A DNA stretch of 2,923 nucleotides from a virus (Duplodnaviria; Heunggongvirae; Uroviricota; Caudoviricetes): the IMG/VR virus record IMGVR_UViG_2703718821_000008; one strand, given 5' to 3'. Below the pieces are notes generated by a model. It had not been told where the DNA came from, made no database searches, and saw only the letters and a program-made list of their open reading frames with translations. The position numbers were made by a program, and so were the translations under genes. Positions 1-2,923 of the stretch are shown piece after piece. Numbering within the stretch: position 1 is the stretch's first letter; each line of letters starts with the position of its first letter.

Positions 1-252
1 CATCGCCTTTTCGATCGCCGGTAACAGAGCCTGCATTTTTTCAACAGCATCAGGGGTGTCTTTATCCAGCCAACGGAAAATTTTCTGGGTATTACGGGCC
101 AGGGCTTCCGGATGGCTGTCGTCGTACAGTTCAGGGAACGTCATCCCCAGTTCGAAATAAGTCCGGGCTATTTCAGCTGCGGGAACTTTCTCACCGTCAG
201 GATATGCCCAGGCATTCATCGCCATGCGGATGTGCTCATGCTTGATTTTCAT
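1..252 (-). CDS. YdaT-family protein (prophage CII-like regulator), N-terminal part only; gene runs past the left window edge
   Basis: Reverse complement of 1..252 translates without stops from ATG (252..250) as MKIKHEHIRMAMNAWAYPDGEKVPAAEIARTYFELGMTFPELYDDSHPEALARNTQKIFRWLDKDTPDAVEKMQALLPAIEKAM. Its ATG overlaps the TGA stop of the upstream Cro-like gene (ATGA at 249..252). The MKIKHEHI start and the position next to a cro-like gene match my recollection of the YdaT family; not verified by alignment. Not in the ORF track because it is truncated by the window edge. Confidence 0.6.
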   Translation of the reverse strand, partial: MKIKHEHIRMAMNAWAYPDGEKVPAAEIARTYFELGMTFPELYDDSHPEALARNTQKIFRWLDKDTPDAVEKMQALLPAIEKAM

Positions 253-464
253 GAATCATTCCTCATTTCGTGCGAGGTGTTATTCTTCTTTTTGTACAGC
301 TCTGGGTTGTATTTCAATTCACCACCAGTAATTTCATCCAACTCAATTGCTCGAAGTTTTGGAATAACAGATTTCCACCGAACAACAGCCACGTGTGAAA
401 TTCCCAGAGCCTCTGCTACTAGCCGCTTTTTTTTGAAATAGCGTAGGACATCATCTTTAAACAT
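249..464 (-). CDS. Cro/DicC/YdaS-family small HTH DNA-binding protein (cro analog), 71 aa
   Basis: Minus-strand ORF (track 249..500). I place the start at the internal ATG 464..462 (MFKDDVLRYFKKKRLVAEALGISHVAVVRWK...), which has a G-rich Shine-Dalgarno (GGGGG, plus coords about 471..475) 6 nt upstream. The track start at 500 is a TTG lying inside an operator palindrome. The HTH-like segment is RLVAEALGISHVAVVRWK. The gene is divergent from the repressor gene. Confidence 0.7.
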   Translation of the reverse strand: MFKDDVLRYFKKKRLVAEALGISHVAVVRWKSVIPKLRAIELDEITGGELKYNPELYKKKNNTSHEMRNDS

Positions 465-493
465 AAATTCCCCCTGTAAAACCGAACCTAAAG

Positions 494-507
494 GTAACAA
501 TAGTTAC
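494..507. promoter_or_regulatory. Operator-like palindrome O1 GTAACAATAGTTAC
   Basis: Perfect 5-bp inverted arms GTAAC/GTTAC with a 4-bp spacer. It overlaps the spacer and -10 of the putative cro-like promoter and is immediately followed by the ATG at 508. Confidence 0.6.
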
Positions 508-541
508 ATGATAATGTCAACCATAGTGACATCCATTGGTA

Positions 542-555
542 GTAACATTGGTTAC
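542..555. promoter_or_regulatory. Operator-like palindrome O2 GTAACATTGGTTAC
   Basis: Same GTAAC-N4-GTTAC architecture as O1. It is immediately followed by the ATG at 556 and contains a -10-like TAACAT (543..548) about 7 nt upstream of that ATG, consistent with a leaderless repressor transcript. Confidence 0.6.
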
Positions 556-1230
556 ATGAACACTACTATTAGCGAACGCATCCGAAAGCGTCGAAGAGAC
601 ATAGGTCTAACCCAACAGCAGGTTGCAAAGGCTATCGGCGTCACCCGTGTATCCGTAACAAAGTGGGAAAATGGTTCAACAAAACCGGACGGTGAGAATT
701 TACATCTGCTGTCAAAACTGTTTTCCAAATCACCTGAATGGATTCTTTATGGGAAAGATATTCACGATCAAGTCGATGATTTGCGATTGAATCAACTCCC
801 CTACCTTAGTGACAACATCACCCGGTTGCCCGTTTTAACGTGGGAACAGGCTGGTTACTGGGATATGAGCTACCCAGTAACCGAAATCCCTGGTATTAAG
901 AATTGGGTTGATGTCATGACAAAAACATCTGAAAACTCTTTTTTATTGCGCGTTGAGGGAGATTCAATGACAAACTCTAACGGTTTGCCAACGATCCCCG
1001 ACGGCTCCACGGTGTTGATCACTCCATGCTCTGGCAACATTGGGGAGATGGCGGGAAAGATTGTTCTAATCCAACTAGAAGGAATACCAACTGTAACACT
1101 GAAAAAAGTCGCAATTGATGGCCCAAACATCTACCTACTGTCATTAAATCCGCTTTACAAGCCTATAGAACTCAATGGTCGCTACACCATTAAAGGTAAA
1201 GTCTCACAAATCCATCAATACTTAGATTGA
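556..1230 (+). CDS. CI-type prophage repressor: N-terminal XRE-family HTH plus C-terminal S24 (LexA-like) autopeptidase domain; 224 aa (240 aa if started at 508)
   Basis: Track ORF 508..1230. The HTH is LTQQQVAKAIGVTRVSVTKWENG (about 607..675). An Ala-Gly candidate cleavage site sits in the linker (EQAGYW; GCT GGT at 850..855). The S24 catalytic serine motif is EGDSM (Ser codon 964..966) and the catalytic lysine is in VTLKKV. Start 556 is preferred over 508 because it gives a normal-length N-terminus before the HTH and leaves a 91-bp divergent control region; neither ATG has a Shine-Dalgarno. Confidence 0.85.
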   Translation: MNTTISERIRKRRRDIGLTQQQVAKAIGVTRVSVTKWENGSTKPDGENLHLLSKLFSKSPEWILYGKDIHDQVDDLRLNQLPYLSDNITRLPVLTWEQAGYWDMSYPVTEIPGIKNWVDVMTKTSENSFLLRVEGDSMTNSNGLPTIPDGSTVLITPCSGNIGEMAGKIVLIQLEGIPTVTLKKVAIDGPNIYLLSLNPLYKPIELNGRYTIKGKVSQIHQYLD

Positions 1231-1232
1231 CC

Positions 1233-1260
1233 AAAAGCCCGCATATATTGCGGGTTTTTC
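1233..1260 (+). terminator. Rho-independent terminator downstream of the repressor gene
   Basis: Stem CCCGCA (1238..1243) pairs with TGCGGG (1249..1254), loop TATAT, followed by TTTTT (1255..1259) and preceded by AAAA (1233..1236), so it may work in both directions. It starts 3 nt after the repressor stop. Confidence 0.7.
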
Positions 1261-1291
1261 ACACGCCTTTATGTAACTTATAGAACACGCA

Positions 1292-1320
1292 TTGACTCAA
1301 CGAGTAACTTCTGTTACCTT
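1292..1320 (+). promoter_or_regulatory. PL-like promoter with embedded operator O3 (GTAACTTCTGTTAC, 1304..1317)
   Basis: TTGACT (1292..1297), 17-bp spacer, TACCTT (1315..1320). A third exact GTAAC-N4-GTTAC palindrome overlaps the spacer and -10, with the same geometry as O1 at the cro-like promoter. A GTAAC half-site lies at 1273..1277. The -10 is a poor match to TATAAT, so the promoter call is tentative. Confidence 0.5.
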
Positions 1321-1496: not shown

Positions 1497-1649
1497 ATGG
1501 ATACGCTCAATCTTGGCAACAACGAATCTCTGGTATGCGGCGTGTTTCCCAACCAGGACGGCACGTTTACCGCGATGACGTATACCAGAAGCAAAACGTT
1601 TAAAACTGAAGCTGGCGCGCGTCGCTGGTTAACCAGAAACACTGACTGA
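1497..1649 (+). CDS. ydfA: Small prophage protein, YdfA/YdaF-like (50 aa)
   Basis: ATG 1497 with GAGG Shine-Dalgarno (1488..1491) 5 nt upstream; translation MDTLNLGNNESLVCGVFPNQDGTFTAMTYTRSKTFKTEAGARRWLTRNTD; stop TGA at 1647..1649. It is not in the supplied ORF track (probably below the length cutoff). It resembles my recollection of the small YdfA (Qin) / YdaF (Rac) proteins that follow the repressor gene; unverified. Confidence 0.65.
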   Translation: MDTLNLGNNESLVCGVFPNQDGTFTAMTYTRSKTFKTEAGARRWLTRNTD

Positions 1650-2549: not shown

Positions 2550-2738
2550 ATGGAAACGTCACTACCAAACGTTAATACGTCTGAAGGGTGTTTTAATATT
2601 GGTATTCTGCTCAGTAACCGGGAGTTTACTGAAGATGCCATCAGGATGAGAAAATATGAGCCTTATCTTCTCAATGATAATTCCATTCTCTCCAGAATTG
2701 CCCTTATTAAACTTGGCATTTTCGGAGGGCAGCAGTGA
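2550..2738 (+). CDS. dicB: DicB-family cell-division inhibitor (62 aa)
   Basis: ATG 2550 with GAGGA Shine-Dalgarno (2538..2542) 7 nt upstream. Translation METSLPNVNTSEGCFNIGILLSNREFTEDAIRMRKYEPYLLNDNSILSRIALIKLGIFGGQQ. The N-terminal half (LPNVNTSEGCF.IG...SN..FTEDAI..RK) matches my recollection of E. coli DicB, which is also 62 aa; the C-terminal half diverges. Confidence 0.8.
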   Translation: METSLPNVNTSEGCFNIGILLSNREFTEDAIRMRKYEPYLLNDNSILSRIALIKLGIFGGQQ

Positions 2739-2923
2739 GTTCAGCGTTTGCACTGATGATGACGGTTTTTCTGATAACAGGTGAGCCACAGAATGTGATT
2801 ACCGGAATTTATGCCAGTAAAGAATCCTGCCATCAGGCAAGAGACGAGCAAAAAATTTCCGGTGAATGTCTCCCGTTAAACAAAGTATCGCTGTACCTGA
2901 ATAACGAAACACCGGCTGGATAA
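2735..2923 (+). CDS. ydfD: YdfD-like small membrane protein (putative prophage lysis protein), 62 aa, GTG start
   Basis: GTG 2735 overlaps the dicB-like TGA stop (GTGA 2735..2738), with a strong GGAGGG Shine-Dalgarno (2724..2729) 5 nt upstream. The N-terminus is hydrophobic (SSAFALMMTVFLITG), consistent with one transmembrane helix. Stop TAA at 2921..2923. Position after dicB and size match YdfD of Qin; sequence identity is from memory only. Confidence 0.6.
   Translation: MSSAFALMMTVFLITGEPQNVITGIYASKESCHQARDEQKISGECLPLNKVSLYLNNETPAG

Follow-up and report, generated by a model that had tools for sequence, protein, structure and literature searches.

Three 14-bp palindromes, GTAAC-N4-GTTAC, in the phage DNA analysed here (the whole stretch of 2,923 nucleotides, hereafter the window) are most probably the operators of a P22-type lambdoid immunity switch, predicted to be read by the adjacent repressor (we put the probability at roughly 0.85). 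Judging from sequence comparison, the CI-type repressor of this E. coli prophage and its Cro partner almost certainly both act via these palindromes to silence two early promoters. The architecture itself is that of phages P22 and 21 and of the Qin prophage of E. coli K-12; the DNA specificity of this P22-type switch is so far uncharacterised. Literature searches found no description of the exact operator strings, no paper on the operators of ZF40-type repressors, and no report of binding of the repressor or Cro to such sites or of PR or PL repression. The argument is built on sequence, conservation, covariation and geometry, all of which are directly observed.

An initial sequence-only reading of the window had proposed three exact copies of the palindrome and had held a chance origin to be very unlikely, and both statements are borne out. 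Exact matches start at positions 494, 542 and 1304, corresponding to O1 (GTAACAATAGTTAC, 494-507), O2 (GTAACATTGGTTAC, 542-555) and O3 (GTAACTTCTGTTAC, 1304-1317), and no further match occurs in the window even when up to two mismatches are allowed. None of 200 dinucleotide-preserving shuffles gave three sites (mean 0.01 per window), and in 49.9 kb comprising the whole of a 99.4%-identical prophage and its host flanks the motif occurs just three times, against 0.04 expected from base composition, and chance is thus excluded. Similarly, a redundant set of 80 related viral contigs, 347 kb in all, has the motif at the three homologous positions and nowhere else. In a host chromosome of 5 Mb, about five copies would be expected by chance.

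The palindromes lie in a region where an HTH_3 + S24 repressor gene diverges from a gene of the P22_Cro family, the intergenic region being 91 bp long (465-555). The genes and the terminator of the window are the following:

1-252, minus strand: gene of the YdaT family at the position of cII, incomplete at the window edge (Pfam PF06254; RefSeq annotation of the matching genome)
249-464, minus strand: Cro-type gene of 71 aa, P22_Cro family (Pfam PF14549, E = 5.5e-16; aligned to the Cro of relatives)
556-1230, plus strand: CI-type repressor gene, 224 aa (Pfam HTH_3 + Peptidase_S24)
1238-1259, plus strand: terminator of the repressor transcript, hairpin and T-run, upstream of OL and conserved in relatives
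1497-1649, plus strand: ydfA-like gene (DUF1391), first in the PL operon (Pfam; gene order as in the Qin dicB operon)
2550-2738, plus strand: dicB, PL operon (Pfam)
2735-2923, plus strand: DUF1482 gene, PL operon (Pfam)

The terminator hairpin (1238-1254) was reported by the scan on the minus strand only, and its plus-strand role rests on the five T residues (1255-1259) that follow it. The PL leader and the start of ydfA are homologous to K-12. An Rfam search gave no match, either at the operators or within the PL leader; when a model was built from the leader conserved in related phages, the window's leader reached just 7.6 bits. A put RNA of the HK022 or HK639 type was considered for the leader and rejected, as there is no sequence similarity.

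Two of the palindromes are embedded in the early promoters, whose elements were read from the sequence:

515-520, minus strand: PR -35 hexamer TTGACA, invariant in 28 unique relatives
491-496, minus strand: PR -10-like hexamer TACCTT (TACATT in distant relatives)
1292-1297, plus strand: PL -35 hexamer TTGACT, conserved in relatives
1315-1320, plus strand: PL -10-like hexamer TACCTT (TACATT, TACCAT or TACCCT in relatives)

On the minus strand, PR runs from TTGACA (520 to 515) through 7 nt and O1 (507 to 494) to TACCTT (496 to 491), with a spacer of 18 nt; on the plus strand, PL runs from TTGACT (1292-1297) through 6 nt and O3 (1304-1317) to TACCTT (1315-1320), with a spacer of 17 nt. The final TAC of each palindrome is at the same time the start of the TACCTT of its promoter. 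O1 and O3 had been described as equally placed in the two promoters, which is correct with respect to the -10 element, but they are one base apart with respect to the -35 hexamer. Likewise, the placing of the palindromes at both promoters stands for O1 in PR and O3 in PL, but not for O2, which abuts the repressor ATG, where there is no cro-type promoter. A generic sigma-70 scan of the window called neither PR nor PL, because TACCTT matches TATAAT at just three of six positions. The two promoters are therefore assigned from conservation and from their homology to phage 21 and Qin, where the dicBp -35 TTGACC is the positional homologue of the PL -35 TTGACT.

The prediction that O1 and O2 form an OR-like site and O3 an OL-like site agrees with the layout of the annotated operators of phages 21 and P22 and of the experimentally studied dicA/dicC/dicBp locus of Qin. 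It can, however, be refined, since O1 and O2 correspond to the outer two (OR1 and OR3) of three OR sites, the degenerate middle one having been overlooked, and O3 corresponds to OL1, next to which a second and weak candidate had also been missed. The predicted sites (palindromic, without strand) are:

494-507: O1, OR1 equivalent, exact match, overlapping the PR spacer and 3 bp at the start of the -10
517-530: Om, degenerate OR2-equivalent candidate, TCAACCATAGTGAC, 3 mismatches, overlapping the PR -35
542-555: O2, OR3 equivalent, exact match, abutting the repressor ATG at 556
1273-1286: weak OL2-equivalent candidate, GTAACTTATAGAAC, 3 mismatches, upstream of the PL -35
1304-1317: O3, OL1 equivalent, exact match, in the PL spacer and -10, after the repressor terminator

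The centres of the OR sites lie at -7.5, -32.5 and -55.5 relative to the repressor start codon. This geometry is rigid: the offset of O1 from the repressor ATG (-62 to -49) is fixed across all lineages, Om occupies a homologous fixed position (-39 to -26), the centres of O1 and O2 are 48 bp apart in all lineages, and the abutment of O2 on the ATG is kept in every lineage, including the clade with GTAGG-type sites. Om matches the annotated OR2 of phage 21 in position, and its right half tracks the specificity class, being GTTAC, GTGAC or GCAAC in the clade with a TKWE repressor helix and CCTAC in the TGWE clade. The OL2 of phage 21 is placed as the candidate at 1273-1286, a position where relatives carry full sites (GTAACTAAAGGTAC in AH07, GTAACTATTGGTAC in L171 and GTAAGTTTTCCTAC in the mEp390 clade). 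The 14-bp palindromes are in fact the core (positions 3-16) of an 18-bp site ATGTAAC-N4-GTTACAT, with extended arms ATGTAAC/GTTACAT and a variable central N4, i.e., the 7-4-7 geometry of P22-like operators.

The repressor aligns with lambda CI and P22 C2 from residue 1. Its start codon is at 556 and not at the annotated 514, and the results indicate that RefSeq starts the repressors of this family 14 codons upstream of the true ATG. In the family alignment its recognition helix corresponds to T30-R-V-S-V-T-K-W-E38. The residues needed for self-cleavage are present (Ala99-Gly100, Ser137 and Lys183/184, which align with the cleavage site and catalytic residues of lambda CI), and A99 is invariant in the family alignment. 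Conservation also points to a promoter of the repressor gene within O2:

543-548, plus strand: putative -10 (TAACAT) of the repressor maintenance promoter

Both specificity classes retain T-A-x-x-A-T, as TAACAT in one and TAGGAT in the other, and they also share the O2 spacer ATT(G/A), whereas the spacers of O1 and O3 are not conserved in this way. A Shine-Dalgarno sequence is absent before 556 but present before cro (GGGGG at 470-474). The putative -10 would place the transcription start at about A556, and the abutment of O2 on the true start codon suggests a leaderless repressor transcript.

The initial reading had assigned the palindromes to the CI-type repressor and had proposed to look in related prophages for covariation between arms and recognition helix; such covariation is found, for the repressor as well as for Cro. 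Among 28 unique related OR sequences, variation is seen in 2 of 20 arm columns and in 43 of the 71 remaining intergenic columns (Fisher p = 7e-5). Like the arms, the promoter hexamers are conserved, while the bases directly beside each site are hypervariable. O1 is identical, spacer included, in nearly all 28 sequences, and O3 keeps its arms with spacers that differ between alleles (TTCT, TCTT, CCTT, ACTT). The few relatives with a mutated O2 or O3 (L004, L071 and L085) may be decaying prophages. Beyond close relatives, GTAAC-N4-G(G/T)TAC is present at the same three or four positions in AH07, ZF40, ST101-KPC2phi6.3 and L170-172, beside repressors 44-50% identical to that of the window and coming from Pantoea, Pectobacterium and Klebsiella phages. 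A search of genome contigs with the repressor as query returned only three unrelated HTH matches, in Firmicutes MAGs, and no useful loci.

The arms change coordinately at all sites with the recognition helices of both proteins. With a TKWE helix, all 87 unique upstream regions carry at least two GTAAC-type sites and no GTAGG-type site; with a TGWE helix, 55 of 60 carry at least two GTA(G/A)G-N4-C(C/T)TAC sites and no GTAAC-type site. The helix of Cro shifts in parallel, a basic residue before the conserved Trp giving way to Gly (SH(V/P)AV(V/C)RW versus SHASVSGW). The number of independent covariation events is small, because there is essentially one switch between two clades, in addition to the P22/21 and Qin states.

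This covariation bears directly on other explanations of the palindromes. It is very improbable that they merely reflect a conserved promoter architecture, be it a duplicated ancestral promoter or a spacer and -10 region read by polymerase, with no protein operators at all. The contexts of O1 and O3 are near-identical, the final three bases of both lie within the -10 hexamer, and GTAAC and GTTAC hold the -10-like strings TAAC and TTAC, as such a reading would predict; O2, however, is outside such a promoter context and yet as perfect and as conserved, polymerase recognition needs no two-fold symmetry, and the arms at all sites change together with the two recognition helices. An RNA-hairpin reading was rejected, as all three sites are upstream of the inferred starts of PR, PL and the repressor promoter. 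The TyrR box, TGTAAA-N6-TTTACA, was rejected as well, its half-site spacing being off by 2 bp. We give equally little credence to binding of some factor other than the CI-type repressor, such as a host dimer of the CRP/FNR type (5-4-5) or the phage product encoded in the YdaT/CII position. CII-type activators classically bind direct repeats, and the annotated site of phage 21 is a direct repeat, TTGYN6TTGY, unlike the palindromes. The consensus of the window's motif equals the consensus GTAACnnnnGTTAC of the site of HcpR2, a CRP/FNR-type regulator, upstream of hcp-type genes (PMC1274295), but HcpR2 has been described from genomes with hcp-linked regulators rather than as a factor of E. coli. 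In phages of Escherichia, Klebsiella, Pantoea and Pectobacterium alike, the motif accompanies the immunity module and covaries with the HTH proteins encoded there; on account of this covariation and of the phage immunity context, an identity with the HcpR2 site was rejected.

A further question is whether both proteins use all three sites. When assayed in vivo, DicA of Qin bound Oc but neither Om nor Oa (PMC3441716), which shows that in this family the repressor does not use every site predicted from sequence. It could accordingly be imagined that only Cro or only the repressor uses O1, O2 and O3, the other protein recognising a different or partial set. We consider this quite unlikely, given that the helices of repressor and Cro change in parallel, in step with the arms, and that the arms of O1, O2 and O3 are identical, whereas the Qin sites are unequal.

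What we infer from these observations is the binding itself, how strongly and cooperatively the sites are filled, where transcription starts and that the repressor transcript lacks a leader. PR and PL would start near 484 (minus strand) and near 1327 (plus strand), respectively, and only after induction. The operator reading would have the switch work as follows. A repressor dimer would read the 18-bp 7-4-7 site through its helix-turn-helix, with (T/S)RVSVTKWE as recognition helix. In a lysogen, repressor bound at O1 (OR1) and O3 (OL1) would cover the spacer and the first -10 bases of PR and PL, thereby blocking RNA polymerase and keeping the cro-ydaT-replication arm and the ydfA...dicB-exo-int arm silent. 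O2 (OR3) would overlap the promoter that serves the repressor gene itself, at the -10 and at the start point; the transcript from this promoter probably begins at the ATG, and because of this overlap O2 would be the site both of negative autoregulation and of the shut-off of the repressor gene by Cro. The weak sites at 517-530 (OR2) and 1273-1286 (OL2) would probably be filled cooperatively. Upon DNA damage, RecA-stimulated self-cleavage at Ala99-Gly100 would release both promoters.

How far the wiring follows lambda is less certain. In lambda, OR3 is the weakest OR site, and the centres of the OR sites lie about one helical turn farther from the repressor start codon than in the window. A lambda-style order of occupancy should not be assumed, because the arms of O2 are as perfect as those of O1; nor should lambda-type activation from OR2, because the window's sites are about one helical turn closer, and because the centre of the putative OR2, some 32 bp before the start point proposed for the repressor transcript, is poorly positioned for it. 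The perfect outer sites, the degenerate middle one and the centres at -7.5, -32.5 and -55.5 might reflect a wiring unlike that of lambda, in which OR1 and OR2 would perhaps not be filled cooperatively and the repressor would not activate its own promoter from OR2, although we regard this as doubtful. As has been reported for DicA at Oc, the repressor might in that case activate from the distal O1, or it might be purely self-repressing; if true, an unusual induction threshold would follow in a prophage carrying stx2a.

The switch is an ordinary phage immunity switch and adds no new principle. Of 5,426 complete E. coli genomes, 702 have a prophage repressor of this type, and the predicted operator would define its immunity specificity; in the best-matching genome, the prophage with this repressor type carries stx2a. 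Prophages with GTAAC-type sites, including the Klebsiella, Pantoea and Pectobacterium phages, are predicted to be homo-immune, and the mEp390 GTAGG type is predicted to be hetero-immune to the window's prophage.

Among the closest known systems is the immC region of P22 and 21. Their repressor is 38% identical to that of the window, has the same HTH_3+S24 architecture and aligns from residue 1 (MNT...), and their Cro is likewise of the P22_Cro family. P22 repressor recognises 18-bp sites, contacting positions 2-7 and 12-17 and leaving the central 4 bp uncontacted (PMC4267663), which fits the variable N4 of the window's sites. Phage 21, with a P22 C2-like repressor, has three OR positions and an OR1-OR3 spacing of 48 bp, the same as between O1 and O2, and its repressor-proximal OR site also adjoins the repressor ATG, the core operator of the window being 2 bp closer. 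In both P22/21 and the window, OL1 lies between the -35 and -10 of PL, and OL2 upstream of the -35. They differ in the half-site (ATGTAAC in the window versus ATTTAAG) and recognition helix (TRVSVTKWE versus SNVAISQWE), in the degenerate middle OR site of the window, in its room for only two OL sites (OL1-3 in P22/21), and downstream of PL, where the window has a ydfA...dicB operon instead of an N gene and boxA/nut.

The window locus is syntenic with Qin and works alike, although its repressor is not of the DicA type. The gene order is shared (cro-like gene, repressor, terminator, promoter, ydfA...dicB-ydfD), and as in Qin the promoter that contains O3 drives ydfA...dicB, the DUF1391, DicB and DUF1482 genes lying downstream of O3. 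Of the Qin inverted repeats, three (Oc, Om and Oa) lie between the divergent genes, with one immediately preceding the dicA ATG; two more are at dicBp, and one of these is in the promoter spacer. DicA acts as the repressor of dicBp and has Oc as a binding site (PMC10448788, PMC3441716). It is, however, a short protein of 135 aa that lacks the S24 cleavage domain and whose induction acts through an antirepressor (PMC10448788), whereas the repressor of the window has 224 aa and an intact S24 domain. Both the Qin site (TGTTAGT-N4-ACTAACA) and its helix (SHVSVSQWE) differ from those of the window, and Oc is located downstream of the dicC -10, while O1 is in the PR spacer.

The window follows lambda in its general logic, in that PR and PRM diverge and share three operators, PL has operators of its own beyond cI, and the repressor is RecA-cleavable. 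The S24 domain of the repressor aligns with lambda CI (E = 1.5e-15), the Ala-Gly, Ser and Lys residues included. The lambda cI message is leaderless, as that of the window may be; the lambda operators are 17 bp long and unrelated in sequence. Finally, in the mEp390-type sister clade the repressor is 42% identical, all site offsets are the same and an operator abuts the ATG, but the arms (GTA(G/A)G-N4-C(C/T)TAC), the repressor helix (NRVTVTGWE) and the Cro helix (SHASVSGW) are different, Lys36 of the window versus Gly of the sister clade pairing with AC versus GG at arm positions 4-5.

The window covers the immunity region of a lambdoid prophage of E. coli, with the following genes and terminator:

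1-252, leftward: YdaT-family gene, overlapping the stop codon of the next gene
249-464, leftward: P22_Cro-family gene (cro)
ending at 1230, rightward: repressor gene (HTH_3 and Peptidase_S24 domains)
1238-1259: hairpin/T-run terminator after the repressor gene
downstream of the terminator, in this order: DUF1391 (ydfA-like) gene, unassigned ORF, dicB, DUF1482 gene

The closest genome is that of E. coli JNE170426, whose prophage is 99.4% identical to the window, adjoins yccA, is about 46 kb long and carries stx2A and stx2B (Shiga toxin Stx2a subunits A and B, L173 16250-17490). This Stx2a prophage is lambda-like and long-tailed, and no N gene is present in it between PL, the early promoter beyond the repressor gene, and ydfA. 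The repressor-operator segment was found in 702 of 5,426 complete E. coli genomes, at ≥95% identity in 8 of them and as a second allele (80-90%) in the other 694, and a search of the phage collection revealed no sequenced phage repressor more than 46% identical to that of the window. The unassigned ORF (124 aa, 1661-2035, between the ydfA-like gene and dicB) is without a Pfam match; at its position the common allele carries ydfB, ydfC and another hypothetical gene. Just 5′ of dicB, at 2375-2582, an STnc100 Rfam match remains below threshold (34.2 bits; gathering score 47). DicF has no Rfam match in the window at E ≤ 1 and is clear (75 bits) in the commoner allele of the prophage region (L003 3801-3852).

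The three exact copies of the palindrome GTAAC-N4-GTTAC reported by the sequence-only reading are confirmed at 494-507 (O1), 542-555 (O2) and 1304-1317 (O3), and the window holds no further copy when two mismatches are allowed. Shuffled versions of the window average 0.01 copies, and three were never seen together in 200 shuffles. In the matching genome the prophage region (49.9 kb) holds the same three copies only (0.04 expected); the chance expectation for a 5-Mb host genome is about five copies. A minus-strand TTGACA lies 7 nt upstream of O1, at the leftward cro promoter PR, and a plus-strand TTGACT 6 nt upstream of O3, at PL; at both sites a TACCTT -10-like hexamer begins with the final TAC of the palindrome. 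The like placement of O1 and O3 on opposite strands was therefore described correctly, give or take one base. PR and PL have weak -10 hexamers, and a generic promoter scan calls neither promoter.

In every lineage sites occupy positions -62 to -49, -39 to -26 and -14 to -1 from the repressor ATG, and the centres of O1 and O2 are always 48 bp apart. In phage 21, which has a P22 C2-like repressor and annotated operators, OR1 and OR3 are likewise separated by 48 bp, with OR2 in between, and the end of OR3 adjoins the ATG corresponding, in the alignment, to residue 1 of P22 C2. O1 is therefore the equivalent of OR1 and O2 that of OR3, in keeping with the earlier assignment of O1/O2 as OR-like and O3 as OL-like, which had nevertheless missed the OR2 equivalent at 517-530 (TCAACCATAGTGAC). 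The PR -35 element dictates the left half of this site; the right half tracks the specificity class, being GTTAC-like in one clade and CCTAC in the other. Relatives and phage 21 have a second OL site upstream of the -35 element; that of the window (1273-1286, GTAACTTATAGAAC) has a single good half, and the terminator leaves no room for OL3. The extended arms are ATGTAAC/GTTACAT, so that each site is an 18-bp 7-4-7 element, in agreement with the P22 repressor, whose contacts are at positions 2-7 and 12-17 and leave out the central four base pairs (PMC4267663).

Across a close set of 80 IMG/VR contigs and three E. coli loci with the same repressor (70-100% protein identity), O1, O2 and O3 are retained at identical offsets. 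Variation is found in just 2 of the 20 arm columns but in 43 of the 71 remaining intergenic columns (28 unique OR sequences; Fisher p = 7e-5); the most variable bases of the region are the immediate flanks of the sites (from site to -35 element, and upstream of O1), and the central four bases of O3 vary by allele (TTCT, TCTT, CCTT, ACTT) while its arms stay. Conserved arms with variable spacers and flanks are the pattern that would be expected for a site read via its arms. Point mutations in a few relatives (L004 2366-2379, L085, L071) give O3 as GTAACTCTTGTCAC or GTAACTCCTATCAC and O2 as GTAACATTGATTAC; the prophages concerned may be in decay, or these may be operator variants whose repression is altered.

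The motif is also kept beside repressors only 44-50% identical, in Pantoea phage AH07, Pectobacterium phage ZF40, Klebsiella phage ST101-KPC2phi6.3 and the IMG/VR loci L170-172, whose recognition helix reads (S/T)RV(S/T)(V/I)TKWE. Here GTAAC-N4-G(G/T)TAC is found in the PR spacer/-10, abutting the repressor ATG, in the PL spacer/-10 and upstream of the PL -35 element. The mEp390 clade (repressor 42% identical, helix NRVT(V/I)TGWE) has GTA(G/A)G-N4-C(C/T)TAC at identical offsets. Covariation of arms and recognition helix, which had been proposed as a test, is thus positive: TKWE repressors have at least two GTAAC-type and zero GTAGG-type sites in 87 of 87 unique upstream regions and TGWE repressors the reverse pattern in 55 of 60, counts that reduce to a small number of independent events (two clades, and the separate states of P22/21 and of Qin). 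The Cro helices shift in parallel, from SH(V/P)AV(V/C)RW in the TKWE clade to SHASVSGW in the TGWE clade, the change being, as in the repressor, from a basic residue to Gly directly before the conserved Trp.

These coordinated arm changes are not explained if the palindromes are pure promoter architecture, nor are O2 and the two-fold symmetry. Another candidate for binding was a host factor of the CRP/FNR type, as GTAACnnnnGTTAC equals the predicted HcpR2 motif of other bacteria (PMC1274295); however, the motif moves with the immunity module and covaries with the proteins of that module. An RNA hairpin was excluded, since the promoter assignments place each of the three sites upstream of the start points inferred for PR, PL and the repressor promoter.

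We regard O1, O2 and O3 as very probable operators for repressor and Cro. Repressor dimers bound at O1 and O3 would block the -10 regions at PR and PL, O2 would be used for self-repression and for Cro-mediated shut-off of the repressor gene, and the weak sites at 517-530 and 1273-1286 would presumably be filled cooperatively. The repressor, in which Ser137 and Lys183/184 are present, would be inactivated through RecA-stimulated cleavage at Ala99-Gly100. O2 matches O1 in perfection, and the distance from the middle site down to the proposed start is some 32 bp; for these reasons a lambda-style occupancy order or activation from OR2 is not to be assumed.

RefSeq places the repressor start of the matching genome at 514 (L001 8514; WP_028985609.1 and its allele), which is probably too far upstream by 14 codons. 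The better candidate is the ATG at 556, because it gives a residue-for-residue alignment with the P22 C2 N-terminus (MNT...), because it is the sole start conserved across lineages and because 514-555 is without coding-like conservation; the ATG at 514 is conserved only as the complement of the PR -35 region. Upstream start calls differ in ZF40 and AH07, too. A Shine-Dalgarno sequence is lacking before 556 but present for cro (GGGGG, 470-474). The TAACAT at positions 2-7 of O2 is TAGGAT in the other clade, and the O2 spacer ATT(G/A) is maintained in the different specificity classes, which the O1 and O3 spacers are not. We would give roughly even odds to a maintenance promoter with its -10 inside O2 and a leaderless transcript from or next to A556. 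The lambda cI transcript from PRM is leaderless.

The untranslated PL leader (1325-1496) is better conserved than its neighbouring genes. A leader RNA of about 62 nt, laid out as GCGAACAGGCAGGACGCCCACGAAGTAGCC-stem-GGCGTATGAA-stem-ATGATTCGC, is common to AH07, ZF40, ST64B, SfII, SfV, phiNP and YeP1-3 (53 phage records; L089 1667-1728, L090 1648-1709, L170 1475-1556), and four pairs of its inner hairpin show compensatory changes. This leader belongs to no Rfam family, and its sequence is not similar to those of the HK022 and HK639 put RNAs. The window retains its core only (AAGTAGCCAGCCCGAGGCGTATGAA, 1390-1414; 7.6 bits against the leader model). In lambdoid phages that lack N, this RNA may serve as an element for processive antitermination or for processing. 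Another conserved PL leader, …GGTGTGGTAGT(A/G)AGCA(G/T)TACGG(C/T)ATATGGCACATGTGCCGCAGCGG…, is shared by mEp390 and ST101-KPC2phi6.3 (L092 1668-1760, L091 1690-1760); hence the exchange of PL leaders does not depend on immunity specificity.

The interest of this switch is modest, slightly raised by its prevalence and by the link to an stx2a prophage. Experimental precedent is supplied by the homologous Qin locus, where DicA represses dicBp and binds the inverted repeat Oc, not Om/Oa (PMC10448788, PMC3441716). What is new is the predicted specificity, an ATGTAAC half-site read by the helix TRVSVTKWE, of which no prior description was found in the literature searched; the architecture is that of P22/21 and Qin and, more loosely, that of lambda.
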